Part shown: positions 11,900 to 46,587 of the stretch, piece by piece | How the letters are laid out: each line of letters begins with the position of its first letter | Position numbering within the stretch: position 1 is the first letter of the stretch | NCBI GenBank assembly: GCA_021794475.1 | Contig: JAJYQS010000101.1 | Location: 12,408-76,407, forward strand | DNA from: a bacterium | GTDB lineage: Bacteria > SZUA-79 > Acidulodesulfobacterales > Acidulodesulfobacteraceae | Direction: 5' to 3' | Length of the DNA stretch: 64,000 nt | The notes under the pieces: model-generated | Databases searched by the model: none | What the model saw: the letters and a program-made list of their open reading frames with translations, nothing else | Told to the model about the DNA's origin: nothing | Program-made: the position numbers and the translations under genes

Positions 11900-12041
11900 T
11901 TTTAGCCATCCTTATATAATTAATATATTATTAATCAGCGCATTAATTAATATATAAATCGACATATTACATTAGTCAATATAACAAATATGATAATGTA
12001 TAATTTTTAAAAAATTATCAAATTTTAATCCTTTTAATGCT

Positions 12042-12839: not shown

Positions 12840-13185
12840 ATTAGATTTACTCCAGGATTTTGTATAATTTTTTAATTTTAATAATTAATAATTATATATA
12901 ATTCTTATAATTCTTATAATTCTACTAATATAATACTATTTCTTATATTTTGCAAACATAAAATAATCAGAAATAGTAAAACAATGCCCAGATAAAAAAT
13001 TAACACCTTGATATCGTAAAACATCAAGTAAAACATCAAGATGTTAATTATAAATTTACTCCGGTGAAAACTACCTATTAATAAATTAACAGGGCGAGCA
13101 GCCTGAATGCTGGTTAAAAACGACCTGTCTCAACGTACGACAGCTACACCGATATTTTTCTAAAAATATTTAATATTTAATTAAG

Positions 13186-14187
13186 TTAAGAAGCCTTAAG
13201 AGTGCTATAAAGAGGTTTTACATTATCGGAAGAAGTGTCTTCAAAGTCTTTTTTTACTCCGAGAGATATAAGACAATTGACTAAATCGTGATAGAATCTC
13301 GCTACTTTAACAGTACCTGTTTTTTTTCCGACTTCTTCAAGGAAATTAATCTTATCGGTAGCCTTGCCCATACCCCTTTCAACAATAGCGCCGGCATGAC
13401 CGAATGCAACACCGTCCGGCATATTTTCCTGAAATACACCTGAAACAAATATTGCAAGAGGCTTAGTATATCCGCCTTTTAATATTAATTCTGCAACCTG
13501 TTCTTCGTATGTTCCTCCCGGTTCACCAAGAATTACGCAGGCATTAACATTAGTATCTTTTTCCAGTTCCGGCAGCACATCCGCAAAAGTAGTGCAGGAT
13601 ATAATATCTCCTCCCAGAGCAAGTGCCATATATATGCCGTATCCGCGTCTTTTAATCATTTCGGAAGTAGTTACCGTTAGCCCCCCGCTTTTTGATAAAA
13701 CAACTACGGAGCCTTCTTTAAAAGCAATGCTTGGGTCTTTTCCGCCGATTGCGCCGATCCTACCCACAGAGGGCACGAAACACCCTAACGAAGTACCTCC
13801 TATAACGGTCACTCCCTTAGATTTAGCTATTTCATAAATAATAATAGAATCTCTGATAGGAACGTGTTCCGTTATTATATACATAAGTTTTATACCGTGG
13901 TTAATCAATTCCATTACCGCGTCCAGAACAGAAGTAGGCGGCACATATATAAGCCCGGTATTTACTGTTTTTTTAAATTCCGGAACTGTGAGCGCTTCTT
14001 TAACTGTATCAAAAACAGGAACTTTCAGCGCATCGTTGGGAATTCCGCCTTTACCCGGAGTAACTCCGCATTTTACTATCCCCGGATAAAGTTTTTCAGA
14101 TTCTATTACAACCTGCGAAGCTTCTCTTCCTGTAATCCCGATAACTATAACGCCCGTCTCGTCATTTAAATATTTAGTGCCTTTCAT
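13186..14187 (-). CDS. ccsB: citryl-CoA synthetase small subunit (succinyl-CoA synthetase alpha-like)
   Basis: CoA-binding start VIGITGREAS, SKSGGLT, phosphohistidine loop GHAGAIV. Paired with the SucC-like gene and ccl. Confidence 0.75.
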   Translation of the reverse strand: MKGTKYLNDETGVIVIGITGREASQVVIESEKLYPGIVKCGVTPGKGGIPNDALKVPVFDTVKEALTVPEFKKTVNTGLIYVPPTSVLDAVMELINHGIKLMYIITEHVPIRDSIIIYEIAKSKGVTVIGGTSLGCFVPSVGRIGAIGGKDPSIAFKEGSVVVLSKSGGLTVTTSEMIKRRGYGIYMALALGGDIISCTTFADVLPELEKDTNVNACVILGEPGGTYEEQVAELILKGGYTKPLAIFVSGVFQENMPDGVAFGHAGAIVERGMGKATDKINFLEEVGKKTGTVKVARFYHDLVNCLISLGVKKDFEDTSSDNVKPLYSTLKAS

Positions 14188-14223
14188 AATTTAATTATCT
14201 CCATGTCTGTTATAATCTGATAT

Positions 14224-15465
14224 TTAAATAATTTTTCTTTCTTTTAATATATCGTAAAGTTTTTGAGGAGCGGCCGTTAAAGGAAGCTCTGAATCATAAA
14301 TTACAGCTTCTATATTATTTTTTACAAAACAGTCGTTTAACATCTGCAATCCTTTTTTGTATTCAGGACCGCTCCTTCTTACAACCCATATTATTCCTTG
14401 AGGAAAAGTCCCTGCCTCTATCATTTCTTCGATGGCGGAAACAAGACCCTCTCCAAGCGTCACGTCAATTCTGGTATTGCTTGCAGTGCCTCCGCAGACG
14501 AGGACGGCTTTTAATCCCGGCTTGGATAAAATTATTTTGGTTATTTTATTCATTTTTTCCGCCGGCGGATTGCCGCCGATATCTGTCAGATTTGCCGGTT
14601 TTAATCCGAGTGCGATAACCGTTTCTGCCGTAATTGTGGAGCCGCCTCCGCCGAAAGTCATAAGAGCAATATTACCGTCAAGTTCGACATAAGAACCTGC
14701 TTTCCCACGATGGTCGTCCCTGTCTATAAGATGGGCTGCCGATTCCCTTTCCGTTAACGGTCTTCCCATTGACCCTCTTGCCGAATATATCTTTGACGGC
14801 GCGATTCGTGCGTCGTCGTCAATTATTGTTACGGCATCAAGAGCGAGTATTTTTTGTTTTCCAGGGACTTTTTTATCCTCAACAATAGCTATCGGATTAA
14901 CTTCCACTAGCCTTGCTTCTGAACTCCAGAAACCGTGATACATATTTGCAACAACTTCAGAAAGCTGCCTTAGAATTTCTTTATCCTGCAATCCAATTTC
15001 AAGAAGAATCTCTCTAACTTTGTAAGCAAAAAGCCCTTCCAGCGGGTCAATATCAAACGTAAAAATTTTTGCAGGCTCCTGTTCTTCAATTTCCATACCG
15101 CCTTGCAAGGAAATTACAAGCACAGGCTTTCTATGCTTTGAAGAATATGTAAAACTTACATAAAGTTCTTTCAATATTGAAGCCTTTTCCTGCAAAATAA
15201 CGCTTACAGGCATTTCCCCATAAACATCGCTGGACATTAAAGCCTTCACTTGTTCGTTTGCTTCATCTCCGGTCGACGCAAATTTAACGGCTCCAGCCTT
15301 GCCCCTTTTCCCGACCAGAACCTGAGATTTCAAAACAACATCGCCATACTGGTCAACAAAATCCTCGACATTTTGCCCGGGATGTTGAACTACTAAATAT
15401 TTAGGAGTAGGGACACCGTATTTTTTAAATATCGCGTCATATGTTTCATATTCATAAAGTTTCAT
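14224..15465 (-). CDS. ccsA: citryl-CoA synthetase large subunit (succinyl-CoA synthetase beta / ACL beta-like ATP-grasp)
   Basis: 413 aa with an ATP-grasp N-terminus (MKLYEYETYDAIFKKYGVPTP). GGAGG Shine-Dalgarno 8 nt upstream. Sits between cfiA and ccsB. Confidence 0.75.
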   Translation of the reverse strand: MKLYEYETYDAIFKKYGVPTPKYLVVQHPGQNVEDFVDQYGDVVLKSQVLVGKRGKAGAVKFASTGDEANEQVKALMSSDVYGEMPVSVILQEKASILKELYVSFTYSSKHRKPVLVISLQGGMEIEEQEPAKIFTFDIDPLEGLFAYKVREILLEIGLQDKEILRQLSEVVANMYHGFWSSEARLVEVNPIAIVEDKKVPGKQKILALDAVTIIDDDARIAPSKIYSARGSMGRPLTERESAAHLIDRDDHRGKAGSYVELDGNIALMTFGGGGSTITAETVIALGLKPANLTDIGGNPPAEKMNKITKIILSKPGLKAVLVCGGTASNTRIDVTLGEGLVSAIEEMIEAGTFPQGIIWVVRRSGPEYKKGLQMLNDCFVKNNIEAVIYDSELPLTAAPQKLYDILKERKII

Positions 15466-15486
15466 AAGTAAATACCTCCATTAATA

Positions 15487-17412
15487 TCAGGGTTCTATTC
15501 TAAGAAGTGCATCTGCAGGGGTTATATTGTCGCCGGCTTTAACATAAATAGCTTTTACCGTCCCTGATATCGGAGCATGAATTTCATTTTCCATTTTCAT
15601 TGCTTCCACTATTGCTATTGTTTGACCCTTTTCAACCTTATCGGCTTCTTTGACAAGAATTTTTGCGACTCTGCCGGATATCGGGGCAGTAGCGTCACCT
15701 TCCTGAAGAACATTACGCTGCGCCGTTGATTGTGCTCCTGGTGTTCTGCACTGGGAATAATTGCCGCCACCTACTGCAGCTTCAACTTTTGAATAAAGCT
15801 GAACTTCTTCAAGTTTGCCTTGTACTCTCACGTAATATTTTCTTGGTTTTCCCTGTTCCTGGCTTGGAGAAACGCCTTCTACTTTAACGCTGAATTTATC
15901 GCCATGATATGTAATGTCAAACTCTACAGGAGCTGCATTTTCCATAACACCCGGCTGCGTTTCTATCATTTCCTCAGCGCCGGCAATAACATCAGACACA
16001 AGACCTCCGCTCTCTCTGGCCTTTAAAAATTCCATTCCCTGCATCGGGAAAAGTACATATAAAAGTATATCTTCATCTGATTTTGCTAATATTCCGACTT
16101 CCTTAACGGCATTATCCCATTCGTTTGCGTCCGCGCTTTCGCTGGGCTTTTTGCTGTAATCAGGTTTTTTGTCCGGTCCCAAAATTTTAGTAACAAGTTC
16201 CTTAGACACCGTTCCTGGAGGCATTCCATATTTTCCGGCTACATAGTCTCTGACTTCCTTTGTAATAATTTTATATCTTTCTCCTGAAATAACGTTCAAA
16301 ACAGCCTGAACGCCGACTATCTGAGAAGACGGAGTAAGAAGAGGCGGATAGCCAAGGTCCTTTTCCACTATAGGGGTTTCCTTTAAAACTTCTTCTATTC
16401 TATCTGAAGCATTAGCTTCTTTTAACTGCGCCACCATATTTGAAATCATGCCGCCGGGGATTTTATGAATTAAAACCTTAGCGTTTACCCCGCCGTATTC
16501 TGTTTCGTATTTTTTATAATCCTTCCTTATCCCCGACATTATAGCAGCTGCTTCTTCTAAAATTTTAATATCTATGCCGGTATCATAAGGCGTACCCTGC
16601 AAAGCTGCAACAACGCTTTCAGTTGCGGGGTGAGAAGAACCGAAAGCCAAAGGTGATAAAACCGTATCCAGCATATCCACGCCTGCATAGATAGCCATCA
16701 TATGGTTCATTATTGCCGTTCCGCTCATATCGTGATTATGAAGTAAAACCTTTATTTTATCGCCGACTTTATCTTTTATGCTTTTTATAATATTATACGT
16801 ATCTAAAGGCATCATGATACCTGTTGCATCTTTGAATGATATCCAGTCTGGAGCAATCTCGATAAGCTCATCGGCATATTGCATCCATTTTTCGTAAGTG
16901 TGAACAGGGCTTTTCGTGTAGCTTATTTCGGCGTGGCACTCGCCGCCCAGTTCTTTTACCGCCTTGCAGGCAACTTCAATATTTCTGTTATCGTTCAGCG
17001 AATCGAAAACTCTAAAAACTGTTATTCCGTTTTTAAGCGCTTTTTCCACAAACTTATACACTACTTTATCCGCTCTAGGTCTATAGCCGACTATGCTCTG
17101 ACCGCGGAACAGCATCTGAAGTTTTGTTTTGGGCATTACTTCTTTTATGCGTCTCAGTCTTTCCCACGGGTCTTCTTTCAAGTACCTGAGGCAAACATCG
17201 TATGTAGCTCCTCCCCACATCTCAAAAGCATACAAACCGGCTTTGTCCATTTTTTCGCATAACGGAATTAAATCATCGGTCTTAACCCTTGTTGCTAACT
17301 TGCATTGAATCCCGTCTCTTGCCGTTAAATCAGTTATTAATATTTTCTTTGGCTTTGCCGCTTCAATCTTACCTTCTTTCAACATTTCTTCAATAGTTTC
17401 GATAGTGCTCAT
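15487..17412 (-). CDS. cfiA: 2-oxoglutarate carboxylase large subunit (carboxyltransferase + C-terminal biotinyl domain); a two-subunit pyruvate carboxylase B subunit is the alternative
   Basis: HMGL-like TIM-barrel start (ITDLTARDGIQ) and a C-terminal biotin attachment motif EAMKMEN. Start moved to the ATG at 17412 (MSTIETIEEM), which has AGGAGG 6 nt upstream; the track ORF extends to 17445. Confidence 0.7.
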   Translation of the reverse strand: MSTIETIEEMLKEGKIEAAKPKKILITDLTARDGIQCKLATRVKTDDLIPLCEKMDKAGLYAFEMWGGATYDVCLRYLKEDPWERLRRIKEVMPKTKLQMLFRGQSIVGYRPRADKVVYKFVEKALKNGITVFRVFDSLNDNRNIEVACKAVKELGGECHAEISYTKSPVHTYEKWMQYADELIEIAPDWISFKDATGIMMPLDTYNIIKSIKDKVGDKIKVLLHNHDMSGTAIMNHMMAIYAGVDMLDTVLSPLAFGSSHPATESVVAALQGTPYDTGIDIKILEEAAAIMSGIRKDYKKYETEYGGVNAKVLIHKIPGGMISNMVAQLKEANASDRIEEVLKETPIVEKDLGYPPLLTPSSQIVGVQAVLNVISGERYKIITKEVRDYVAGKYGMPPGTVSKELVTKILGPDKKPDYSKKPSESADANEWDNAVKEVGILAKSDEDILLYVLFPMQGMEFLKARESGGLVSDVIAGAEEMIETQPGVMENAAPVEFDITYHGDKFSVKVEGVSPSQEQGKPRKYYVRVQGKLEEVQLYSKVEAAVGGGNYSQCRTPGAQSTAQRNVLQEGDATAPISGRVAKILVKEADKVEKGQTIAIVEAMKMENEIHAPISGTVKAIYVKAGDNITPADALLRIEP

Positions 17413-17422
17413 TGATATCCTC

Positions 17423-18841
17423 CTATAAACCGTGATAGGCTGCAAGCGCAGCGCTTATAAATGCAACATAGTCTTCTTTGTCTTTAACTTCGTCATAATT
17501 AAAAACTTCAGGATGTTCTTCTAAATATTTTGTAGTAAATAAACCTGTTTTAAAATCTTCCTGCTGAATTATTTGTTTAAGAATCGGTATAGTAGTTTTT
17601 ATGCCGCTTATTTCATAAGAATCCAGAGCTATTTTTGTTTTTTGTATCGCTTCTTCAAATGTTTTTCCCCAGCATATTAATTTAGCAATCAGAGAATCAT
17701 AATATGGCGTAACTTCAAAGCCGACTGAAACAGCGCTTTCAACCCTGATGTTATTGCCTCCCGGCACATAATATCTCTCTACCGTGCCGATACTCGGACG
17801 GAAATCATGTTTAGAATCCTCGGCATTTATTCGACATTCTATCGCAAATCCGTTTAATTTTACGTCTTCCTGTTTTATCTCAAGCTTTTGACCGGCGGCT
17901 ATCTTGATTTGCTCTTTTACTATATCGACACCTGTGATCATTTCGGTAACAGGATGCTCAACCTGCACCCTTGTATTCATTTCAATAAAATAAGTATTAC
18001 CCTGCAAATCCGAAACGTTCTCGATGGTACCTGCGCTGTAATAACCTATCTGCTTACATGCATTCACCATAGCATCGCCGTAAAACTTACGTTTTTCTTC
18101 GGTAAGTATTATAGAAGGTGCTATTTCAATCATCTTTTGATTTTTTCTCTGAATTGAACAGTCTCTTTCACCAAGATGAATTACATTACCGTATTTATCT
18201 CCAAGAATTTGAAACTCGGTGTGCTTCGGGTTCTCAATAAATTTTTCTAAAAGCAGGTCACCGTTTCCAAATGCCTTTTTGGCTTCCGAATAAGCGCTTT
18301 CATAGTTCTTTTTCAATTCTTCTTCATTTTTGCATAGCCTGATACCGCGTCCGCCGCCGCCTGCCGTAGCCTTAAGAAGGATAGGGTAAGTAATTTCTTT
18401 AGCAATTTCAATAGCTTCTTCTAAAGATTTCAAAATACCGTCGCTCCCCGGAACTGTAGCAACCCCAAATCTTTTCATAACCTCTTTTGAGCGCGCCTTA
18501 TCACCCATTAAGGCAATAACTTTCGAAGACGGGCCTATGAAATTAACATTGTTATCCTCGGCAGCCTTTGCAAATTCTGCATTTTCCGCCAGAAAACCGT
18601 ATCCGGGATGAACCGCATCCGCGCCTATTGATTTTGCCAAGTCAATAATAAGCTCGTAATTTAAATAGGCATCCAAGGGATTAGCTCCCAGCATATATGC
18701 TTCATCTGCCATTTTTACGTGTCTTGCCGTCGGCTCGACTTCGGAAAAAATTGCAGCCGTCGGAATATCCAGTTCTTTAGCCGCCCTGATAATTCTGCAG
18801 GCTATTTCTCCCCGATTTGCTATAAGAATTTTCTTGAACAT
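17423..18841 (-). CDS. cfiB: 2-oxoglutarate carboxylase small subunit (biotin carboxylase)
   Basis: Biotin carboxylase N-terminus MFKKILIANRGEIACRIIRA, with ATP-grasp and BC C-terminal domains, 472 aa. Directly upstream of cfiA and downstream of icd. Confidence 0.7.
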   Translation of the reverse strand: MFKKILIANRGEIACRIIRAAKELDIPTAAIFSEVEPTARHVKMADEAYMLGANPLDAYLNYELIIDLAKSIGADAVHPGYGFLAENAEFAKAAEDNNVNFIGPSSKVIALMGDKARSKEVMKRFGVATVPGSDGILKSLEEAIEIAKEITYPILLKATAGGGGRGIRLCKNEEELKKNYESAYSEAKKAFGNGDLLLEKFIENPKHTEFQILGDKYGNVIHLGERDCSIQRKNQKMIEIAPSIILTEEKRKFYGDAMVNACKQIGYYSAGTIENVSDLQGNTYFIEMNTRVQVEHPVTEMITGVDIVKEQIKIAAGQKLEIKQEDVKLNGFAIECRINAEDSKHDFRPSIGTVERYYVPGGNNIRVESAVSVGFEVTPYYDSLIAKLICWGKTFEEAIQKTKIALDSYEISGIKTTIPILKQIIQQEDFKTGLFTTKYLEEHPEVFNYDEVKDKEDYVAFISAALAAYHGL

Positions 18842-18886
18842 AATTATATATTGCCCTCCATAATTGTTTATTATCCAGAGTATTGC

Positions 18887-19297
18887 TTACTGCACTATCT
18901 TAAAGGAATATGAAATAGGAGCTACTTGATTTATCAGATAAGCAATGCTGCATGTCTTATTAAGAGCTTCCTCGATAGCTTTCGTAACATCTTCGTCGGT
19001 AAGTTCTTTAGCTTTTATGATAAAAGATAAAGAAATCTTTGTGAAAACTTTAGGAGAAGTTTCTTTTCGTTCGCTGTCGGTATCCACTATAATATCTTCT
19101 ATATGCTTACCGCTTTTATGAAGAGCTTCGTAAACATGAATACCCATACACCCTGCAATAGAATAAAGAAAAAGTTCAGGCGGTCTTACCCCTCTGCCTT
19201 TTCCGCCGACGTATCCTGCCGCGTCAATGTTTATTTCGCCTGAGTCGCCTGAGCCGATAAAATGAAAATCTTCTTTCTGTCTAACCGATAATTTCAT
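18887..19297 (-). CDS. OsmC/Ohr-family protein
   Basis: 136 aa with OsmC-like spacing of two Cys (IAGCMG and KTCSIA). Confidence 0.65.
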   Translation of the reverse strand: MKLSVRQKEDFHFIGSGDSGEINIDAAGYVGGKGRGVRPPELFLYSIAGCMGIHVYEALHKSGKHIEDIIVDTDSERKETSPKVFTKISLSFIIKAKELTDEDVTKAIEEALNKTCSIAYLINQVAPISYSFKIVQ

Positions 19298-19326
19298 AAT
19301 TCACCCCCAAAATTTTGTTGCATAGT

Positions 19327-20583
19327 TTATATTTCAATTAGAATAGCCTCGCCAAACTCGGCAGTCTTAAGCTCCGTTGCCTCTTTACCCATTTTTTTAA
19401 ATCCATAAAACATATCGCTTGTACCTTTACGCTGTTCTATAACGCTTTTTACAGCTTTATAAATAAGGTCTGCAGCTTCTTTAAAGCCGATGTATTCAAG
19501 CATCATAGCGCCTGATAAAGTAATAGATAAAGGATTTGCCATACCTTTTCCGGCAATGTCCATGCCGACTCCGTGAGTACTTTCAAAAAGAGCGTAACCG
19601 TCTCCGATATTTCCGCTTGGAACAAAACCAGGTCCTCCTACGAGAGCAGAAGCAAGGTCTGATATATAATCGCCGTTCAAATTCTGGGTAATGATAACAT
19701 CATAAGCATCAGGCTTTAAAACTAACTGCATAAGCATCTGGTCGGTTATGACTTTGGAAAGTTTTATCTGATTGCCGGCAACCGGTCCTGCCGATATTTT
19801 ATCCTTAAATTCATCTTCTTTCGCTACTTCAAAAGCCCAATTCATAAAAGCGCCTTCGGTAGCTTTCATAATATTACCTTTTCCGGCTACCGCAATCGAT
19901 TTTTTATTATTCTCTATGGCATATCTGAAAGCTTTTCTTACATGCCTTTTTGTTTTAAATTCACTCATAGGTTTAACGGTAATACCCGCATCTTCAGGAA
20001 TAGCGTCCGATTTTACGCCCATTTCATTGATAAAAAACTCCCGCACTTTTTTTGCTCCGTCTGATTTCGGCATATATTCTATGGACATATAAACATCGTC
20101 TGAATTTTCCCTGAAAACCGTTACATTTACCCGTCCGGCATCTGGTATAGGCGACGGCTGTCCAAGATAGTAGACCGGTCTTATTGCCGAGTAAAAATCC
20201 ATGGACTGCCTTAGAATCGAATTAAGAGACTTTCCCGGTTTGCCGACAGGAGTGCCGAGAGGTCCTTTTATAGAAACAACGCTCTGTTTTAAAATCTCCA
20301 ACGTTGCTTCGGGCATTCTTTCTAATCCGTTCTTTTCAGCTTTGTCTCCAGCCAGAGCTTCAACCCAATAAATAACTTTTGAGCCGTTATATGCTTTTTT
20401 TACGGCGCTATTTAAAACTTTATGCATTACCGGAACAATTTCAGGACCTATTCCGTCTCCTTCAATATAAGGAATTATAGGGTTATGAGGTATTTCTAAT
20501 GTTTTATCCTCTTTTAGCTTAATAAAACTTCCTTCTTTTGGAATACATACTTTACTATCCCATTTAAACACATTTTCGTTCAT
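19327..20583 (-). CDS. icd: NADP-dependent isocitrate dehydrogenase (homodimeric prokaryotic type)
   Basis: 418 aa with motifs GDGIGPEI, SLNSILRQ, NLNGDYISD. Confidence 0.9.
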   Translation of the reverse strand: MNENVFKWDSKVCIPKEGSFIKLKEDKTLEIPHNPIIPYIEGDGIGPEIVPVMHKVLNSAVKKAYNGSKVIYWVEALAGDKAEKNGLERMPEATLEILKQSVVSIKGPLGTPVGKPGKSLNSILRQSMDFYSAIRPVYYLGQPSPIPDAGRVNVTVFRENSDDVYMSIEYMPKSDGAKKVREFFINEMGVKSDAIPEDAGITVKPMSEFKTKRHVRKAFRYAIENNKKSIAVAGKGNIMKATEGAFMNWAFEVAKEDEFKDKISAGPVAGNQIKLSKVITDQMLMQLVLKPDAYDVIITQNLNGDYISDLASALVGGPGFVPSGNIGDGYALFESTHGVGMDIAGKGMANPLSITLSGAMMLEYIGFKEAADLIYKAVKSVIEQRKGTSDMFYGFKKMGKEATELKTAEFGEAILIEI

Positions 20584-32127: not shown

Positions 32128-33708
32128 ATGGGTTTGTTAATGTTAATTATGAAAAAATTAATTTTTATATTAAAAGTTTTGAATTTTGCTATCTGCATTC
32201 AAATTATAACAGTTTGCATGCTTGTTGAGAATTCAAATGCGTTAAGCAAAATATCAGTAGGCGCCGGCAGTAATAATATAAGCAGAAGCTCCAATATTAA
32301 CATTAACAGGAAGACTGAGACTATTACCGGCTTAAATGAGCAGCTTTTAGACACATCAGACATAAACTATAACATCGGCAGAAAGACTTGTATTAACTGC
32401 AGAACGCACAATCACATGCAATCCTTTAATATCAGAAATTCTAACATTAGCATGAAAGCAGGCGGCGTTGACTTTAAAAACAGCTCTTTTTTATCACAGA
32501 TTAGACTTCTCGGCACATTTGCCGCTTCCTATACTTATAATTTTGCAGACCCTGTTGCAAATATTGAGTTTCCGCAAGGTAATTATAACGGAAATTATAT
32601 TAACGATTATAAAGTTAACGGTTTTACTATTAACGAATTAGACCTGAGCGTTTCCAAAAATGCGTTTTCAGACGGCAGGCATGCTTTCGGTCTTGGTTTC
32701 AGGGCAACATTTGATACCGGAGAAAATATACAGGACGTAGGACCTTATACCGGCAATTATTCTTACTACATAGAGTCTCTTTATAACAGACCGCTTTATG
32801 GTTTTAGGAATTTATTTATATCTTTTGGTTTACCGATTGGAAACGGTTTGAAGATTGATATAGGCGAAAAAAATTATCTCATAGGTTTTGAATCTTACAA
32901 CCTATCGAGATTATGGGAAAATACGTATTCGCCCATCACCGCCATAGAACCAGGAGAGCTGACCGGAATTTTTTTAAGCTATCCTGTTATTCCGAGAAAA
33001 TTAAAAATGGTCTTCGGAACGGCTATGACAGACAATGCTATGGTACCGATAGACAGGTATCCGACATTTGAGTTTATCGCCTCATATAAGCCGTTCGATG
33101 ATTTAAAATTTCACGAAGGAATAGTTTACGGAGCAGAGAATTTTGTAATATATAATAATAATTTAATACAGGATAATTTAAATAAATTTTTCTATAATTT
33201 TGCGGATGCCAAGTATAAACCGTTTCATTTCTGGACTTTTGTAATTGACTACGAAACTGGATTAAACGGAGGAATTAATAAATCAATTGTGAAAAATAGC
33301 GGCATAAATATTGACAAATTTAATTACTTAGGGGAAACGGCATCTTCGGTATATCCTGATTATTTAATTTCAACATCAAATGCAACGTATGACAAATCTC
33401 GTTTTTCAGGATTAGCCTTTTATATTCATCATTATAATTTATTAAATAATATAGGCAGATTTTCACAAACTATAAGGGAAGTCAGGGTATGGGACCCGCA
33501 GGGAATGTGGGAAGAAACCAGTATTCCGGGCGAGGCATTTAACTATTTTGATTCAACGCTGACTTTTGGTTTAAGACCGTCTTGCAGTTTTTTTAAAAAT
33601 ACACAGTTTAGACTGGAATTTGAAAATCAGTTAGCAAATCATAAAATTTACGGAGACGGAAACAGCATACAGAATACCGTCAATTTTATGCTCGTCAGAA
33701 CATTTTAG
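32128..33708 (+). CDS. putative outer-membrane beta-barrel protein (porin-like)
   Basis: Signal-peptide-like N-terminus (probable start MKKLIFILK at 32149), alternating aromatic/polar strands rich in Y/F/G/N, and a C-terminal ...NFMLVRTF ending in Phe, like the OMP beta-signal. Confidence 0.5.
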   Translation: MGLLMLIMKKLIFILKVLNFAICIQIITVCMLVENSNALSKISVGAGSNNISRSSNININRKTETITGLNEQLLDTSDINYNIGRKTCINCRTHNHMQSFNIRNSNISMKAGGVDFKNSSFLSQIRLLGTFAASYTYNFADPVANIEFPQGNYNGNYINDYKVNGFTINELDLSVSKNAFSDGRHAFGLGFRATFDTGENIQDVGPYTGNYSYYIESLYNRPLYGFRNLFISFGLPIGNGLKIDIGEKNYLIGFESYNLSRLWENTYSPITAIEPGELTGIFLSYPVIPRKLKMVFGTAMTDNAMVPIDRYPTFEFIASYKPFDDLKFHEGIVYGAENFVIYNNNLIQDNLNKFFYNFADAKYKPFHFWTFVIDYETGLNGGINKSIVKNSGINIDKFNYLGETASSVYPDYLISTSNATYDKSRFSGLAFYIHHYNLLNNIGRFSQTIREVRVWDPQGMWEETSIPGEAFNYFDSTLTFGLRPSCSFFKNTQFRLEFENQLANHKIYGDGNSIQNTVNFMLVRTF

Positions 33709-35860: not shown

Positions 35861-36201
35861 GATGAGCGCCTTTTTTATTTAGGTTATATTGGCAACTAAT
35901 TAAATTAATAAACAAATTAAATTAAGCTAAAATAAAATGAAATAAAATCTGCTAATAAGTTAAATTATTTTTATTTTATGTTGAAAAATCAGTTATATAA
36001 AAAACTTATTTATATAAATAATCAACAAACACATTAACCAAAACCAATACTTAATTTAATTATACCACAATAAAGAAATAAAAAAATTTTGCTCATCTTT
36101 ATAACGTCATCATCTTTTTACCGCAATAAAAAAATAACGCAAATATCTGCCGAATTATTAAGGTAAGTTCCCGTCTCTAATTTATTTTCGATTTTTTATT
36201 A

Positions 36202-37524
36202 TTATAAATTATCGTCGGCAGCTGCTGCAGCGCTATCCGCAACGCCTGCGCCGGCTTCGGCTTCATTAAGTTTTGAGGCCTTTTCTTTTAATGCTGCAAA
36301 ATAAATTGCAATAGGTCTGTATGCAAGATGCGACCATTTAGAAAACGGCACTTCAATGACGAGCATAGGAATTACTATCATTAAGTGAATCAAATATAAG
36401 TAAAAAACCCACGACGAAGGGTCTTTATAAACAACGAAAGCCCTCAGCATTATTCCTGTAAAAGCTGTCATAAAAAGCAGAACGATAAACGCCCAGTCGG
36501 TATGATGAGAAAATTTGCTTCTTTCGATTTTCTTTGTGAGTCTTTTATATGCAAAATAAATAGTTCCGAATATGAGTCCTATACTTGCATAATAATCAAA
36601 TAATATAGTATGGAACAATACGTATTTATCATCAGTCTGAAACCATTTTAAGAAAACTACTATTCCTATAAATAAAGCTACATAGCTGGTCATAAGGAAC
36701 ACGTGCGTAAGCCAGAAATTATATTTTCCTTCGGAAAGTTTTTTAAAAAAAGTCTCTTTCTGCGCTTCTTCATCTTCGCATTTTGAGAATCTTATCTGCG
36801 TAAAAAAATTAAATATCAGCGCCCATAATTCAGTAAAATAAAGTTTAAAAGGAATCTTGACATTTTTATCGCTTAAAACAGTTTTTTTAAACATATTAAA
36901 AATAAATGAGAGCAGCAGCGCTGAAAGTATAACTATCATGGGATAATCAAAAAAATAATCTATCTTATACGCCGGAACCATTTGATTGATAGTCAGTATT
37001 TTATTGCCGCCGCCCGCACTGCCCATGACACTTGCATTGCCGCTGATATTTGCATTGGAGTGAGGGGTTAATCCAAAAAGAACAGCCCATTCTATAAATA
37101 CAATCACCGCCACTATTAACAATGCAATATATTCTGCAATTTTGGATTTATAAAGCAATCTTGAAATTCCTGTCCAGTCGTAAACGGTAGTCAGCCAGCG
37201 TCGAAGCGACATCATAAGCTGTCCGGGGTCTGCTTTTCTAGGACAGAACTCGGAGCATTTTCCGCAATAATAACATAGCCAAGGGTCAAGGTCTCCTTCT
37301 AATTTATTTTTCAAACCCCACTGAGACCATATCATTTCCTTTCGCGGGAAAGGTTTATCGTCAGACGATAAAGGACATATTGCAGAACACGTGCCGCACT
37401 GAAAACATTTTTTAAAAGGACTGTCTCCGATATCCTTAATATTCTTAACAAGATTAAAATTATTAATATCGTTATCGTTACCGTTGATATTAATGCCTTT
37501 GGCGTTTTGCGAATTGCTGGACAT
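36202..37524 (-). CDS. qmoC: quinone-interacting membrane-bound oxidoreductase subunit QmoC (HdrC-like FeS domain fused to HdrE/NarI-like membrane domain)
   Basis: Two CxxCxxCxxxCP motifs (CFQCGTCSAICP, CYYCGKCSEFCP) followed by several TM helices. Downstream of qmoAB. Confidence 0.8.
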   Translation of the reverse strand: MSSNSQNAKGININGNDNDINNFNLVKNIKDIGDSPFKKCFQCGTCSAICPLSSDDKPFPRKEMIWSQWGLKNKLEGDLDPWLCYYCGKCSEFCPRKADPGQLMMSLRRWLTTVYDWTGISRLLYKSKIAEYIALLIVAVIVFIEWAVLFGLTPHSNANISGNASVMGSAGGGNKILTINQMVPAYKIDYFFDYPMIVILSALLLSFIFNMFKKTVLSDKNVKIPFKLYFTELWALIFNFFTQIRFSKCEDEEAQKETFFKKLSEGKYNFWLTHVFLMTSYVALFIGIVVFLKWFQTDDKYVLFHTILFDYYASIGLIFGTIYFAYKRLTKKIERSKFSHHTDWAFIVLLFMTAFTGIMLRAFVVYKDPSSWVFYLYLIHLMIVIPMLVIEVPFSKWSHLAYRPIAIYFAALKEKASKLNEAEAGAGVADSAAAAADDNL

Positions 37525-37856
37525 ATATTTTTATCTCCCGAAACTGAAACCTGATTATGCTATAAATAAAATAATTATAAAATAATTAATATAAACAATT
37601 ATTAATAATGAAATAAGTAAAATAATTAATATTGTATAACATATAATTGCAAAGCCGTCTGCGTCTGTTCACTATATCTGCTGAAACAAACGAATAAATA
37701 ATTGATTAAATAACTAAATAATTAATCAAACAAATAAATCATTAACAAAATAACTGAATAACTAAATAACAAAACCGAATAAACAGCCTATTTATTAAAT
37801 AAATCAAAATTCCTTATTTAGATAGCTAATTGAATAAAAAAATTAGAATGCCTTAT

Positions 37857-40800
37857 TTAGAATTCCTTATAGGGATTAGAACCTAAAGATTTTATTTTGT
37901 CTGCAAACTCATTTAATATATCAGGTAATTTCTTGTAATCGGAGAATTCCAGCTGAACCTGTTTTATTCTTTCAGATTCCAACACTAATCTTGTCAAAGT
38001 TTCTTTAAGATTTTCCATTCTATAAGATGCCAATTCTGAACCTTTGATGAAATGGCATTGATAATCATCTCCAAATTTACAGCCCAAAAGAAGTATTCCG
38101 TCTATTCCTCTTGAAAGAGCGTCGGCATACCATACATTATTTATAGAGCCGAGGCATCTTACCGGAATAACTCTGATATTCGACGGAAGCTGTATCTTAT
38201 TCATTCCTGCAATATCAAGAGCGGGATATGCATCATTTTCACAGGCGAAGACTAATATCCTGAAATCATCTATTTTTTCAGCCTCGCCCGGAACGTTTAT
38301 GCTTTTCAGCATTGAACCTATTATATCTACCGAATAATTCTTAAACGAAATAATCTTAACCGGACACGCTCCCATGCAAACCCCGCATCTTCTGCATCTT
38401 TCCGGATTTGGTTTAGGCGTGCCTTTTTCATCTTCGTCGATAGCTCCGAAAGGACATTCCTCTGTGCATCTTTTGCATTGCGTACATCTTTGCAAGTCAA
38501 AAAACGGATAAGTAGTATCATTTGACCTTGGATGTACTGCTCTGCCCTTAGAAGTCTGCTCAATGCACTGTATTGCTTTAAGAACCGCTCCTTTTGCATC
38601 GTCAACTGAAAAAACCGTATCCATCGGTGCTCTGACGGAACCGGCCGGATATATACCTGTTCTTCTCGATTCATAGGGAAAACAAATAAAATTAGAATCA
38701 GGGAAGCCGTATATAAGGTCGGGCATTTCCTTGCCCTGTCTGTATGTTAAATTAAGAAGACCGCCTTTACTGTTAGTTTTAGAGGTAGACACTGAACCGG
38801 ACTGCATGGTCGTACAGCATGAAACCGTTGTAGCAGTAGCAGACGCAATAGAACTCTTTGATGATGCGGCAGGCGGCTGCACGGAAGTTCCGGTACTTTC
38901 CGGAGCAGTTTTAGGCGCAGCACCGCCTATTGCATTTATTTTTATAGCTGCAGCGGTACTTAAGGCGGCATTTGTACTGACATTGCTCTTTCCGCTGCCA
39001 TTGCCTATGCTGATACTTGAAATTTTTGACGTGCCTGAAATATTGTCTTTGTTATTTAAATCTTTATCTTCATCTTTATCATTATTGCTGCTATTATTAC
39101 TGTTATTAATATTAATGCTGAAACTGCTTCTGATAACGGCGGGATTAGAACCGCCTGTTTTATTATGAATTGCATTATCATTAGTTTCATTGCTGCTGCC
39201 TGCAGCTGGATTAATATTTATACTGCTTCGTTGAATATTTATACTGCTTTTAGTTGTTGTACTGCTGCCGTCAGCATTTTTATCAGCTGCCACAGCGCCA
39301 TCAGGCGCCTTACTTACGGGATTAATATTTATACTGCTTCGTTGAATATTTATACTGCTTTTAGTTGTTGTCGAATCGCTGCTGCTGTTAGCATTATTGC
39401 CTGCATTACTGCTGTTATTAACGACATTATTGCTGCTGCCTGCAGCAGGATTAATGTTTATACTGCTTCGTTGAATATTTATACTGCTTTTAGTTGTTGA
39501 TGCGTTTATATTTTTGTTTGCATTTATATCTATATTAGTATTAGTATTTACATTTGTGTCTGCATTGCTTGGATTTGTATTTTTATTTTCCGCGGAAACG
39601 GCGTTCATACCCGGAATGCTAATTTTTGATGTTTTTACAGATATAGACGAAGTTTTCTGATTTGCTCCGCCGGTAGAGATTTTATTATCGCCATTGTTAT
39701 TATCATTATTAATATCACTACTGTTATTGCCGTTAGCGGACGAAACCGCAGCAGTACTACTTTTAGCGTTGATTTGAATTTTATTATTAATTTGAATTTG
39801 GCTCTGGTTCTTGCCGCTATTTTGGCTCTGAACGCCGGCTTCATTTTGATTGGTGCATTGTTTGCATTGTTCTTGTTCTTGCATCTGTATACTTGCAGAA
39901 TCAACATCTGCAGAGATTACTTCGTCGTTTGCCGTAAAATTGCCTGAATTTGGAACCATGCCTGAAGCAAGTATGACCATATCCACATCTAACTCAAGAC
40001 TGCCTCCAAAAAGTGTATCGTTAACTTTTAACTTTATAGTATTATTTTTTCCGTCGTATGAGACATCGGACATGATTCCTTTAACCATAAATATTCCGTC
40101 GTCATTCTGCATACTTTTATAATAATTTTCATATTCACCAGGTGTTCTTATATCGCGGTATATTATATATACTTTGGCATCCGGATTATTCTTTCTGAAT
40201 AAATTAGCTTCTTTCAAGGAAGTCATGCAGCAGACAGTAGAACAGTAAGGCAGATAATTTTCGTCTCTTGAACCGGCACATAAAATAAACGCAACAGATT
40301 TAACATCTTTGCCGTCGGATTTTCTTTTAACGGCAAAATCTTCATCGCCGCTTTTTAAATACAGTTCGGAATAAAGTTCTTCAAGTTCGACATTCGTCAG
40401 AATATCAGGGGTCAAACCGTATCCTAAATATGACAGATTATGCGCATCATACGGTTTCCAGCCGGTTGCTACAATGATTGCGCCTGCTTTTTCAATAACG
40501 GTTTCTTCATTTATATTTTTACTATTTTTATCATTTTTAGATATATCAGATTTATCTTTTATATCTTTATCGGAATCAAAATCGGAACCGGAACCCAAAC
40601 GGAAATTCGTACTTGTCTTTACTTTTATTTTTACTTCAAATTTTCCCGGAGCGCCTGATATTTCACTAATTTCCGAATTTTTATATATTTTAATTTTTTT
40701 AGAACTTTCAACATTATCAATAAGTTTGCCAAGGTCATTTTTAATAAGCAGATTATTTTCGAAAGGCGGGCTTGTCTCCCATTTTTTATACTTTAAATAA

Positions 40801-41324
40801 GGAAATCCGCCTAGATGCTCTTTTTTCTCTATTAATATTACATCGTATCCCGCTTTTGCAGAATTCAGAGCGGCAGTTAAACCAGTAACGCCTCCGCCTA
40901 CAACTAAAATAGTCTTATTTAATTCTGCCGCCAGAGGAACAGTAATTTCAGCTTTTTTTGCTCTTGCGATCCCCATTCTTAAATAATCTTCGGCAAGCAT
41001 CTGAGCACCTTTGCTGTTTGGTTCGCTCACCCATATCACATGCTCCCTTAAATTAACCCTTTCCGTAAATATTTTTGACAAGTCAAAGCTAAATACATCC
41101 TGTTTTGACCTCATTGAGCACGCTGCTATAACTATTTTATTTACACCGGAAGATTTAATATCTTCATTGATAATATTTAAACCTTCTTTAGAGCAAAGAA
41201 AATCATTCGCTCTGCAAATTTCCGGTTTATATTCGTTTTTTGCAATATTTTCAAGTTTTTCTATATTCAGGTATTTACCTATATCGCACCCGGAACATAT
41301 ATAAACTCCAAGCTTATTATCCAT
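37857..41324 (-). CDS. qmoB: QmoB (HdrA-like flavoprotein + ferredoxin + MvhD-like domain) carrying a ~390-codon low-complexity insertion
   Basis: N-terminal part has VVGGGVTGLTAAL. C-terminal part has CTQCKRCTEECP and CRRCGVCMGACP, plus an MvhD-like ILVFACENDAYPALD...GCKFGDDYQCHF. One open frame of 1155 codons. Confidence 0.85.
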   Translation of the reverse strand: MDNKLGVYICSGCDIGKYLNIEKLENIAKNEYKPEICRANDFLCSKEGLNIINEDIKSSGVNKIVIAACSMRSKQDVFSFDLSKIFTERVNLREHVIWVSEPNSKGAQMLAEDYLRMGIARAKKAEITVPLAAELNKTILVVGGGVTGLTAALNSAKAGYDVILIEKKEHLGGFPYLKYKKWETSPPFENNLLIKNDLGKLIDNVESSKKIKIYKNSEISEISGAPGKFEVKIKVKTSTNFRLGSGSDFDSDKDIKDKSDISKNDKNSKNINEETVIEKAGAIIVATGWKPYDAHNLSYLGYGLTPDILTNVELEELYSELYLKSGDEDFAVKRKSDGKDVKSVAFILCAGSRDENYLPYCSTVCCMTSLKEANLFRKNNPDAKVYIIYRDIRTPGEYENYYKSMQNDDGIFMVKGIMSDVSYDGKNNTIKLKVNDTLFGGSLELDVDMVILASGMVPNSGNFTANDEVISADVDSASIQMQEQEQCKQCTNQNEAGVQSQNSGKNQSQIQINNKIQINAKSSTAAVSSANGNNSSDINNDNNNGDNKISTGGANQKTSSISVKTSKISIPGMNAVSAENKNTNPSNADTNVNTNTNIDINANKNINASTTKSSINIQRSSININPAAGSSNNVVNNSSNAGNNANSSSDSTTTKSSINIQRSSININPVSKAPDGAVAADKNADGSSTTTKSSINIQRSSININPAAGSSNETNDNAIHNKTGGSNPAVIRSSFSININNSNNSSNNDKDEDKDLNNKDNISGTSKISSISIGNGSGKSNVSTNAALSTAAAIKINAIGGAAPKTAPESTGTSVQPPAASSKSSIASATATTVSCCTTMQSGSVSTSKTNSKGGLLNLTYRQGKEMPDLIYGFPDSNFICFPYESRRTGIYPAGSVRAPMDTVFSVDDAKGAVLKAIQCIEQTSKGRAVHPRSNDTTYPFFDLQRCTQCKRCTEECPFGAIDEDEKGTPKPNPERCRRCGVCMGACPVKIISFKNYSVDIIGSMLKSINVPGEAEKIDDFRILVFACENDAYPALDIAGMNKIQLPSNIRVIPVRCLGSINNVWYADALSRGIDGILLLGCKFGDDYQCHFIKGSELASYRMENLKETLTRLVLESERIKQVQLEFSDYKKLPDILNEFADKIKSLGSNPYKEF
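38769..39945 (-). other. in-frame low-complexity insertion within qmoB (Asn/Ser/Ala/Thr/Gly-rich)
   Basis: Lies between ...DMVILASGMVPNSG and LLNLTYRQGKEMPDL..., with no resemblance to HdrA/QmoB core sequence. Confidence 0.8.
39208..39499 (-). repeat. three ~52-nt direct repeats encoding TTKSSINIQRSSININP
   Basis: Copies at about 39208-39259, 39318-39370 and 39448-39499 (plus strand ...GGATTAATATTTATACTGCTTCGTTGAATATTTATACTGCTTTTAGTTGTTG). Confidence 0.9.
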
Positions 41325-41331
41325 GTTTTAT

Positions 41332-42732
41332 TTAACCTCTTTTATTAGCGGAAAACTGTAAAACGGAAAGAGCGGCTCCGGTTGAAGCCTGAACTGAACT
41401 GTAAACATCGGCTGGATTTTTTGCAACGCCTGCTGAAAAAATTCCCGAATTTTCATTCTGGTTAAATAGAAAACCATTTGCATCATAGCCGAACTTAACA
41501 TTGCCTGTTTTTATAGATGGTCTGTTTGGGACCATACCTGCTGCAAGAACTACCATATCGGCTCTAAATTTTATTTTTTTGCCTGAAAGTATATCTTCCG
41601 CTTCAAGAAAAAGGTCTCCAGAAATCTCGTCTTCGAAGATATTTGCTACAATCCCTTTAATAAACTTAGTTTTTTCGTCAGATGACGCCCTATTGTAAAA
41701 CTTTTCATATCTTCCGGGCGTTCTTATATCAATATAAAAAATCGTAGAGCTGGATTCCGGATTTTTTTCCCTGAGATAAATCGACTGCTTCAAGGAGGCT
41801 AAACAGCATATTGCCGAGCAATACGGAAGGTGATTTTCATTCCTCGAACCTGCGCATTGCACGAATGCAACATTCTTAGCTTCTTTGCCGTCAGACGGTC
41901 TAAGAATTTTTCCGCCTGTAGGACCGTTATCCGCCGCAAGTCTTTCCATCATAACATTCGTAATTACATTTTTATATTTACCGAAACCGAGATTTGTAAT
42001 TTTCCCTGCGTCGTAAGGTTTCCAGCCGGAAGCTACGACGATAGATTCTGCTTCTATGTCAAATATTTCTTCTTTTGCGTTAAGATTTATCGCATTATAT
42101 CCGCAGGCACTTTCGCATTTTTTACATGAGTCAAATTTGCAAACTTCTGCATCAACATTATATTTTGACGGATAAGCAGATATATTTGTTATATAAATAG
42201 CTTTCTGCGTATCCATGCTATAATTAAAATCATTTAATCTATTTTCAGGACACACCTTCGCGCATTCGCCGCAAATAGTGCAGTTATCGTTAATATACTG
42301 CGGTTTCTGCCTTATTTTAACTTTATAGCCGTTAACACAACCGCTGCCATTACCATAATTATTACTATTAACGTTAACATCAACGGCGGCGCTGCTGACA
42401 GTATTTCCTGCCGAGACAGCGCTATTTCCTATTTCCCGTCCGCCTGAGTTTTTCTGAATTTCAGTAATTTCTTCTATTTCTGATGAAACATAAAATTTTA
42501 TCCTGCCTTCATCGGCTGACTTAATTCTTCTCAAATTAATTTCGAAACCGCAAAACGACGGACACAGTTTTGGAAAATATTTGTACATCTGCAAAACTCT
42601 GCCTCCGATGTACGGATTTTTTTCCACGACAATAACCGATTTTGACGATGCCTCGGTTATTTCAAGAGCCGCAGATATGCCGCTGAATCCTCCGCCGATA
42701 ATAAGAACAGGTCTTTCGTTCAATTTGCTCAC
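41332..42732 (-). CDS. qmoA: QmoA (HdrA-like FAD flavoprotein)
   Basis: IIGGGFSGISAAL dinucleotide motif and ferredoxin-like CTICGECAKVCP. GTG start. Sits between aprA and qmoB. Confidence 0.85.
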   Translation of the reverse strand: MSKLNERPVLIIGGGFSGISAALEITEASSKSVIVVEKNPYIGGRVLQMYKYFPKLCPSFCGFEINLRRIKSADEGRIKFYVSSEIEEITEIQKNSGGREIGNSAVSAGNTVSSAAVDVNVNSNNYGNGSGCVNGYKVKIRQKPQYINDNCTICGECAKVCPENRLNDFNYSMDTQKAIYITNISAYPSKYNVDAEVCKFDSCKKCESACGYNAINLNAKEEIFDIEAESIVVASGWKPYDAGKITNLGFGKYKNVITNVMMERLAADNGPTGGKILRPSDGKEAKNVAFVQCAGSRNENHLPYCSAICCLASLKQSIYLREKNPESSSTIFYIDIRTPGRYEKFYNRASSDEKTKFIKGIVANIFEDEISGDLFLEAEDILSGKKIKFRADMVVLAAGMVPNRPSIKTGNVKFGYDANGFLFNQNENSGIFSAGVAKNPADVYSSVQASTGAALSVLQFSANKRG

Positions 42733-45360: not shown

Positions 45361-46587
45361 TTAATTCAACTCGCCCTTTGCAGCTCTATGCAATTTTACT
45401 TCAACATTTTCATCTTTCGAGAGATTAGAATAATAATCCTTTAAAATTGCTAGAACTTCAGGTCTTGAAAAATGGTCGGGTATATCTTTCCCTTCCGACA
45501 AAAGTTTTCTGAGCATAGTTCCGCTAAGAATGAGCCTGTCTTCTTTCTGATGCGGACAGGTTTTGTTAGACGCCATTCCGTCACACTTGCGGCAGTAAAA
45601 GGTCCAATCTATTTTTAACGGTTTGAGTTCTAAAGCATTTTTAGGTATTTCGTCAAATATTTTATGGGCATCAAAAGGACCGTAATAATCACCTACACCA
45701 GCGTGGTCTCTGCCGACTATAAGCTGCGAACATCCGAAATTTTGTCTGAAAACGGCATGCAGCAATGCTTCTCTCGGTCCTGCATACCTCATTTCCATAG
45801 GATAGCCTGCCTGAATACAGGTATTAGCAACAAAATATTTGTCAATCAAAGTGTTAATAGCCTTAACTCTTACTTCTGCCGGAATATCTCCCGGCTTTAA
45901 TTTTCCTATCAATTGGTGTATCAAGACACCGTCAGATACTTCTATGGCAATTTTTGCCAGATATTCATGCGAGCGATGCATCGGATTGCGCAGTTGAAGC
46001 GCCGCCACCGTGCTCCACCCTTTTTCTTCAAATATTTTTCTTGTCTCGGCAGGTCTTTTATACACGTCTTTAAATTGCGCCGGATAAATGCCTTCGCTAA
46101 AAACTTTTACCTTTCCTGCAAGATTTATTTCTCCCTGAGCCATAACCTTTTGTACACCCGGATGTTCTAAATCGGTAGTTTTAAATATTTTTTGACATTC
46201 ATATGCTTTGTCTATAGAATATTTTTCTGACACGGTCATAGTGCCCATCAGTTCAGATGTTTCAGTATCTACTAAAGCAACTTCGTCGCCTATTTTTATA
46301 ACGTCTGATTTTTCTTTGGATGTTGAAAGAGTAATAGGAATCGGCCAAAACGTTCCATCCTGCATAGTAAAATCATCACAGACGCTCTTCCAATCTTTTT
46401 TGCCCATAAAACCTTCAAGCGGAGTGAAAGCGCCGATGCCCATCATTATAAGGTCTGACGTTTCACGCGAAGTTATTTCAATTTTATTCAGCTTTCCGGC
46501 TCTTTCTTTTGATTCTTTAAGCTCGCTGCCCGATAAAAGAAGCGGTTTTAAAATCTTTTCTTTTCCATGAGGATGAACTAATGCCAT
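45361..46587 (-). CDS. sat: sulfate adenylyltransferase (ATP sulfurylase)
   Basis: [13 protein letters not shown] (HxxH) and GRDHAGVG motifs, 408 aa. GGAGGA Shine-Dalgarno. Confidence 0.95.

Follow-up and report, generated by a model that had tools for sequence, protein, structure and literature searches.

How can a core respiratory flavoprotein carry several hundred residues of low-complexity sequence in the middle of its flavin domain? QmoABC is the electron-delivery complex for adenosine 5′-phosphosulfate (APS) reductase, with a mechanism that is debated, and its QmoB subunit is typically 714–776 aa long. We analyzed a 64,000-nt stretch of bacterial DNA (contig JAJYQS010000101.1 of assembly GCA_021794475.1, positions 12,408–76,407 of the forward strand; G+C 34.6%), hereafter the window, in which the qmoB frame runs over 1155 codons. 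The extra sequence is a real, in-frame, transcribed, lineage-conserved, repeat-built and fast-evolving segment. We consider it likely that this segment is translated as a disordered, tolerated expansion under weak constraint, without a new catalytic module. Two features define the problem.

37857–41324, minus strand: qmoB, a single open reading frame (ORF) of 1155 codons; HdrA-like flavoprotein with a 2×[4Fe-4S] ferredoxin and an MvhD/FlpD domain (ORF, Pfam, PDB sequence and Foldseek matches)
38757–39950, minus strand: expanded hypervariable loop of QmoB, 398 aa, residues 459–856, Asn/Ser/Ala/Ile/Thr-rich, predicted to be disordered

The initial annotation had reported the qmoB frame as open over all 1155 codons, and a single uninterrupted ORF was indeed found. 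Pfam assigned residues 138–298 to the flavin adenine dinucleotide (FAD)/Pyr_redox part (Pyr_redox_2, FAD_oxidored), residues 941–991 to Fer4 and residues 1023–1148 to FlpD/MvhD (E 1.6e-40), with no match between residues ~470 and ~860. PDB sequence searches matched HdrA (E 2.7e-70) and MvhD chains alone, with no Qmo subunit among the matches, and the best Foldseek matches were HdrA (E 2.8e-35). Eight cysteines of the N-terminal and flavin-domain [4Fe-4S] clusters (C10, C13, C44, C69 and C349, C361, C365, C366) are invariant across 71 aligned QmoBs. The window ORF map and the called genes of related loci place qmoB downstream of aprBA, with qmoA and qmoC as its neighbors. By its HdrA-like fold, Cys motifs, ferredoxin and MvhD/FlpD domains and gene context, the window protein is a QmoB. 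Canonical QmoB, found in aprBA-qmoABC operons of sulfate reducers and sulfur oxidizers (about 715–775 aa), has the same domain order, namely an HdrA-like N-terminal Cys domain, a FAD domain with CxGSRD...C...CC, a 2×[4Fe-4S] ferredoxin and MvhD/FlpD, as well as the same operon order (sat-aprB-aprA-qmoA-qmoB-qmoC) and a core that is 54–75% identical. In contrast, the loop after ...GMVPN measures 6–51 aa in canonical QmoB versus 398 aa in the window, and a second loop 2–9 versus 39 aa. The window protein retains its whole catalytic core, comprising the FAD domain, the Fe-S motifs, the ferredoxin and MvhD, and purifying selection on this core is strong: pairwise Nei–Gojobori ratios of nonsynonymous to synonymous substitution rates (dN/dS) are 0.05–0.09 on both sides of the insert. 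Together with the transcription described below, these values argue that the protein is functional; its predicted role would be to pass electrons between the menaquinol pool and APS reductase.

Recognizable HdrA-like sequence ends at ...DMVILASGMVPNSG and restarts at LLNLTYRQGK. With borders anchored on columns conserved across the 71 QmoBs, the insert placed initially at 38769–39945 extends over 38757–39950, a difference of a few codons. Loop length was taken from the same alignment as the number of residues separating MVP458, which is nearly invariant, from the invariant L857. It is 35–51 aa in most sequences, 6 aa in six, 22 aa and 60 aa in one each, 67 aa in Candidatus (Ca.) A. diazotrophicus (P0006) and 361–398 aa in the five insert-bearing forms. 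QmoB of this sister species, Ca. A. diazotrophicus, has 825–838 aa, and that of Ca. Acidulodesulfobacterium has ~767 aa with a loop of ~42 residues. Residues 324–514 and 534–656 of HdrA align on the two sides of the insert, which therefore replaces a ~20-residue connection in the thioredoxin-reductase-like flavin domain. Methanogen HdrA (PDB 5odc, 8rvu, 7bkb) shares the fold (Foldseek E ~1e-35) but has only about 20 residues at the insert site. Judged by the alignment of 71 QmoBs, the insert is an eight- to nine-fold expansion of a family-wide hypervariable loop, with no conserved element disrupted. The initial annotation had described QmoB as split by an insertion. The insertion stands, but the site is not a random break, since the same loop varies from 6 to ~50 residues in most QmoBs. 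The comparison of orthologs for length polymorphism that it proposed revealed a range of 6 to 398 aa across the 71 QmoBs, along with repeat variants at strain level. Outside the window, a 1114-aa QmoA–QmoB fusion from a Logan assembly (P0060) has a minimal loop at the insertion site (...GMTPSNSEDLNLTY...).

Could the insert be a product of assembly, or mark a pseudogene or a split gene? Repeats of at least 71 nt are hard for short-read assembly, and a single repeat unit separates strains that are otherwise near-identical. However, the same protein is recorded from NCBI, JGI and ENA, and the qmoB DNA is identical to the window within 0–1 nt in seven independent metagenome contigs. Four more clusters at 90% identity have an insert at the same site (P0002, 1122 aa; P0003, 1130 aa; P0004, 1116 aa; P0005, 1161 aa); their proteins are 68–86% identical overall to window QmoB, their inserts measure 361–369 residues, and their genes all lie in a sat-aprBA-qmoABC-hppA neighborhood. 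The P0004 cluster contains RZD16463.1 (UniProt A0A519BGR6) from the type metagenome-assembled genome (MAG) of Candidatus Acididesulfobacter guangdongensis; therefore, the window comes from the genus Candidatus Acididesulfobacter, whose members are acid-mine bacteria. In all five insert-bearing orthologs the sense frame alone is open, with 6–36 stops in each of the antisense frames, and none contains an in-frame stop or frameshift of the kind that would make two separate genes. Across the window insert, 26.5 stops would be expected in the sense frame and 0 occur; of 2000 shuffles that preserved dinucleotide composition, 0 stayed open. In each of the remaining five frames there are 9–63 stops, and the longest open runs measure 46–146 codons, so the early caution that this stretch is also open in other frames is only weakly true and fails for the stretch as a whole. 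The gene is, moreover, single-copy and transcribed. Bin AP2, which is Ca. A. guangdongensis, has a single qmoB (Tan et al. 2019, PMC6776010, Table S4), with values of 0.07, 1.24, 0.70, 2.45 and 15.8 reads per kilobase per million (RPKM) in five metatranscriptomes, tracking aprA (0.04–21.8) and qmoA (0.18–12.6) (PMC6776010, Table S5). Given the seven assemblies, the five in-frame orthologous clusters, the constraint on the core at both sides of the insert and the transcripts, we regard an artifact, pseudogene or split gene as effectively refuted and its probability as minimal.

Nor does the insert resemble an element that would be absent from the mature protein, such as an intein, an intron, a mobile element, an antisense gene or a structured RNA. 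Open antisense stretches reaching 146 codons and the invariance of the Arg-Ser-Ser codons over copies and species could be read in favor of such a feature. An intein was rejected because Pfam found no Hint or endonuclease domain and the C-terminal border (...SKGG/LLNL) has no His-Asn followed by Cys, Ser or Thr; a self-splicing intron or structured RNA was rejected because an Rfam scan of 36000–42000 gave nothing relevant and the frame is uninterrupted in the five orthologs. An antisense gene was likewise discarded, as stops occur in all antisense frames of every ortholog. A scan of the insert for promoters and terminators yielded only consensus matches that were weak, as is usual in AT-rich DNA, with no terminator-like site on the coding strand. 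At insert codons with an invariant amino acid, synonymous variability was as expected from core rates (43 observed vs 40 expected). Conservation within the insert thus acts at the protein level, and conservation of the insert overall at the nucleotide level was rejected. A feature outside the mature protein is extremely unlikely.

Ser (19%) and Asn (18%) dominate the insert, followed by Ala and Ile (10% each) and Thr (8%); S+N+T+Q+G amount to 56%, with N 17.6% and Q 4.5%. Aromatics are almost absent, and 56 of 397 residues (14%) are charged, with a net charge of about +4. It contains the following repeats and conserved elements, given in the direction of translation.

39828–39881, minus strand: conserved island QEQEQCKQCTNQNEAGVQ with a CxxC pair (CKQC), residues 482–499
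39609–39650, minus strand: conserved island SSISVKTSKISIPG, residues 559–572
39447–39497, minus strand: repeat copy 1, TTKSSINIQRSSININP, residues 610–626
39318–39368, minus strand: repeat copy 2, TTKSSINIQRSSININP, residues 653–669
39207–39257, minus strand: repeat copy 3, TTKSSINIQRSSININP, residues 690–706, not in orthologs P0002, P0003 and P0004
39105–39149, minus strand: related, degenerate motif SNPAVIRSSFSININ, residues 726–740, near-invariant in all five orthologs, where one position is F or Y; P0005 has it twice
38925–38954, minus strand: conserved island AAAIKINAIG, residues 791–800
38814–38825, minus strand: VSCC, a Cys pair close to the C-terminal base of the loop

At the DNA level, a 71-nt repeat is present in three copies with 77–100% identity. 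The three 17-aa repeats, the degenerate fourth copy (IRSSFSININN) and the DNA repeats reported by the initial annotation were all found where it had placed them. Candidate tryptic peptides predicted from the insert sequence are ISIPGMNAVSAENK, SSININPVSK, TGGSNPAVIR, INAIGGAAPK and SSINIQR.

Comparison of the orthologs indicated that the insert changes quickly and by whole units. Every indel within it is a multiple of three. The 17-aa motif occurs in three copies in the window versus two in P0002, P0003 and P0004; Ca. A. guangdongensis has one 40-aa unit more than P0004, and two strain-level variants are without the internal 7-aa half-repeat INIQRSS. P0005 carries tandem arrays of 15 nt × 8.9, 111 nt × 3.6 and 111 nt × 2.1, with 95–99% identity. 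The dN/dS of the large insert is an approximate 0.30–0.52, far above that of the core, and its substitutions are spread nearly evenly over codon positions. Selection on the insert is therefore much relaxed, with the frame still under purifying selection. Some islands are nevertheless kept even in the most distant ortholog, P0005: (Q)CxNQNEAG(V/I)Q, (K/Q)RSSI(N/S)INP, SNPAVIRSS(F/Y)SININ, I(N/K)(I/V)NAIG and SCC. When islands were defined on the P0003–P0005 comparison and measured on other pairs, their dN/dS was 0.24–0.32, versus 0.37–0.54 for the spacers. The Arg-Ser-Ser codons are CGA or AGA followed by AGC AGT in all copies of both motif types in five species, with no synonymous change. This is only marginally unexpected given two-fold degeneracy, and concerted evolution could account for it.

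An AlphaFold2 model built from 71 aligned sequences, five of them spanning the insert, assigned residues 462–854 a predicted local distance difference test (pLDDT) score of 23–30 and no secondary structure, while the flanking domains reached ~90. No Pfam family matched the insert at E up to 0.1. Since a word-indexed search was saturated by low-complexity proteins, we ran an exhaustive phmmer search of 1.84 billion protein cluster representatives, in which the sole match was an insert-bearing QmoB cluster representative; neither Pfam nor this search provided a curated repeat profile or homologs for the repeat unit. A DNA-motif scan of genome contigs matched two MAGs, in both cases at qmoB orthologs. 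Six single DNA-motif matches on unrelated metagenome contigs were treated as chance.

The loop is not the only inflated site in this lineage. Four smaller inserts lie in the Qmo genes of the window.

40503–40616, minus strand: smaller QmoB insert, D/K/S/N-rich, residues 237–274, at the site of the inserted ferredoxin domain of methanogen HdrA
42334–42456, minus strand: lineage-specific low-complexity insert of QmoA, residues 93–133
37456–37503, minus strand: Asn-rich N-terminal extension of QmoC, residues 8–23, ...KGININGNDNDINNF
37003–37062, minus strand: lineage-specific loop expansion of QmoC, residues 155–174

Methanogen HdrA carries a ferredoxin domain where window QmoB has its smaller low-complexity insert. 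The pLDDT there falls below 50 at residues 240–265, and the same loop measures 2–9 aa in other QmoBs; at this site P0005 (locus L008, 6753–6885) has the 15-nt × 8.9 array, encoding (KDLNE)n. The QmoA inserts of the lineage comprise ~40–57 aa, and those of QmoC are found at the N-terminus, in one loop and in the C-terminal tail. The QmoA and QmoC inserts co-occur with the large QmoB insert in one group of genomes. Across six genomes at 90–100% identity, the only indel in Sat, AprB, AprA and HppA is a single gap column in HppA. The window also encodes a 667-aa MurE (3093–5096, minus strand). Of its two Asn/Asp/Ser/Lys-rich inserts, the first separates the middle from the C-terminal ligase domain and the second lies within the C-terminal domain. 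MurE has about 500 aa in bacteria in general, 518–551 aa in Acidulodesulfobacterium, 622–645 aa in the Ca. A. diazotrophicus group and 626–716 aa in the Ca. A. guangdongensis group. As both MurE and the Qmo subunits are inflated, the QmoB loop represents the extreme case of genus-wide protein inflation.

On these data, we propose the following account of the insert. The setting is the AT-rich genus Candidatus Acididesulfobacter, in which MurE and the three Qmo subunits bear Asn/Ser/Asp/Lys-rich inserts. The expansion would sit in a surface loop of the flavin domain, flanked on one side by the ...ILASGMVPN strand and on the other by the flavin-binding part LLNLTY...TGIYPAG. It probably arose, and keeps changing, by in-frame tandem or segmental duplication of units of ~21 nt and ~111–120 nt, plausibly by slippage during replication or by unequal recombination, the genome being AT-rich. 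Both halves of the flavin domain would fold together, with the loop extruded at the surface and outside electron transfer. Weak purifying selection keeps the loop open, polar and of similar length, and stronger constraint at the protein level acts on a few short motifs of the type [KR]-S-S-(I/F)-x-I-N-I, which alternate hydrophobic and polar residues as in short β-strands. Our guess is that these motifs could mediate weak multivalent self- or partner association, or compact the loop, and would add no enzymatic step. Of the two possibilities raised by the initial annotation, the translated disordered linker gains support from a dN/dS below 1, motifs conserved at the protein level, a pLDDT of ~25 over residues 462–854 and transcription; the assembly or repeat artifact does not, given seven assemblies, four further clusters and no stops.

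Several observations weigh against a loop that is simply tolerated. The conserved motifs, the total of 361–398 aa maintained despite differing repeats and the four cysteines of each long form hint at a function beyond that of a passenger. Hydrophobic-x-hydrophobic patterns in the insert number 15 versus 7.8 expected, a count inflated by the repeats themselves. A low pLDDT computed from five informative sequences would also be compatible with a fold that forms upon oligomerization or partner binding. The dN/dS of the insert is uncertain to the extent that alignment within low-complexity sequence is uncertain, and the copy-number differences between near-identical strains could in part reflect collapse during short-read assembly. 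Finally, that the loop is present in the mature protein is a reading from DNA and transcripts.

Two further explanations would assign the loop a purpose. It could be a prion-like or condensate-forming multivalent domain that, with the QmoA and QmoC inserts, clusters Qmo or tethers AprAB and Sat to the membrane complex. The polar, weakly charged, Asn/Ser-rich tract, the repeated and conserved short β-prone motifs, the gain of inserts in all three Qmo subunits of the lineage but in none of Sat, AprAB and HppA, and a dN/dS below 1 even in the spacers are all consistent with such a scaffold. MurE, however, is inflated in the same way, which makes a Qmo-specific purpose unnecessary; the repeat motif was found in no other ORF of the window or of related loci, so a partner motif is not evident; and the N+Q content of the insert (~22%) seems to be below that of classic prion domains. 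A scaffold, read here from sequence, therefore seems rather unlikely. The same holds for its broader form, in which selection would have shaped the loop and the QmoA and QmoC inserts into a multivalent domain for self-assembly or tethering, perhaps with a tetra-Cys metal site at the loop base, that organizes Sat, Apr and Qmo in a lineage whose type genome is reported to lack dsrAB; we give it little credence.

A new folded or cofactor-binding module appears more doubtful still, whether a β-solenoid of ~37-aa units or four cysteines that bind a metal or Fe-S cluster and so pin the two ends of the loop together. The period of ~37 aa is regular (111-nt spacing), and all five long-insert forms have exactly four loop cysteines; in P0005 one member of the CxxC pair has been lost and a Cys stands elsewhere. 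The clade of close relatives also conserves a Cys near the loop's C-terminal base. A single Cys is kept in 32 of 32 shorter-loop relatives sampled (P0006 to P0045, 69–80% identical to window QmoB), about 14–21 residues before the loop end and usually in GASC; it is absent from nearly all more distant QmoBs and doubled to SCC in Ca. Acididesulfobacter. On a speculative note, the four Cys of the long forms may constitute a metal site at the loop base. Yet AlphaFold2 predicts no structure, the number and order of units vary between species, the spacers diverge fast, and four Cys in ~400 residues are not unusual by chance. We thus favor the disordered, tolerated expansion over a scaffold or a folded module.

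Expansions of this kind have parallels elsewhere. In Plasmodium falciparum, whose genome is AT-rich, in-frame Asn-rich low-complexity inserts occupy surface loops of housekeeping proteins; they are strain-variable in length, fast-evolving and proteome-wide, much as QmoA, QmoB, QmoC and MurE are all affected here. The host of the QmoB insert differs in being a bacterium with a ~2.2-Mb genome, and the QmoB insert also has short motifs conserved across species. Among bacteria, the Rho factor, an essential enzyme, is described as carrying Asn-rich insertion or prion-like domains, for example in Clostridium botulinum (PMC4703818, PMC6400439, PMC11347177). As far as the titles and abstracts of these papers and general background go, the Rho insertions resemble the QmoB insert in being long, Asn-rich, disordered, lineage-specific and hosted by AT-rich genomes. 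They differ in host protein and site, and the QmoB insert is Ser/Asn/Thr/Ala-rich rather than Asn/Gln-rich and has recognizable tandem units. The QmoB insert is long, biased toward polar residues and predicted to be disordered, as low-complexity self-assembling domains are. Its size and site in a core Qmo enzyme are undescribed in the literature surveyed; long disordered Asn-rich inserts in essential bacterial enzymes are already known from Rho.

AP2, the Ca. A. guangdongensis type MAG (~94% complete, 5 scaffolds), is reported to have no dsr operon, dsrAB included, yet retains sat-aprAB-qmoABC (PMC6776010). The insert-bearing lineage may thus run Apr and Qmo without DsrAB. In the Sudbury metaproteome dataset of PMC13594681, proteins of sulfate reduction from SZUA-79 MAGs were detected. 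In our survey of literature on QmoB with an insertion or disorder and on the genus, we found no description of the insert; the main text of the 2019 report (PMC6776010) does not mention Qmo, and a 2025 paper on the phylum mentions it once. The initial annotation had asked whether the insertion is a common and already described feature of QmoB in its lineage: members of the Ca. A. guangdongensis group share it, and a description was not found. Public insert-bearing QmoB records are annotated as "hydrogenase iron-sulfur subunit" or "HdrA-like polyferredoxin".

For specialists in sulfate reduction, the size of the insert is surprising, with no sign of new chemistry. That ~350 extra disordered residues appear to be tolerated in the middle of a flavin domain suggests a surface position for tags or fusions in purification and cryo-electron microscopy. 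A small-genome acidophile (about 2.2 Mb) also inflates core enzymes with low-complexity sequence, a habit better known from Plasmodium and bacterial Rho. If the [KR]SS-I-x-I-N motifs are interaction sites, the loop would be a rare disordered scaffold in bacterial energy metabolism, and if the scaffold explanation holds, a disordered low-complexity region would regulate or scaffold a bacterial respiratory complex. If the motifs are not interaction sites, the loop would be a clean case of near-neutral repeat expansion that annotation passes over silently as a "hydrogenase iron-sulfur subunit".

The ORF map and Pfam place qmoB in a minus-strand operon, sat-aprB-aprA-qmoA-qmoB-qmoC, followed by the gene for a membrane pyrophosphatase (HppA). 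Its other delimited members are as follows.

45361–46587, minus strand: sat
41332–42732, minus strand: qmoA
36202–37524, minus strand: qmoC

Elsewhere in the window, a BBP2-type porin ORF (32128–33708, plus strand) has a variable low-complexity stretch after its signal peptide. Its orthologs measure 459–578 aa, and an otherwise identical strain (locus L001) has a 517-aa variant. The string SRSSNININRK in this ORF was set aside as a chance similarity to the QmoB repeat, being encoded by other codons and not kept in BBP2 orthologs. The region 10943–20583 (minus strand) encodes reductive tricarboxylic acid cycle-type enzymes (citryl-CoA lyase and synthetase-like ORFs, a 2-oxoglutarate or pyruvate carboxylase with both of its subunits, and isocitrate dehydrogenase) as well as GlpX, a neighborhood that agrees with the autotrophy proposed for the order.

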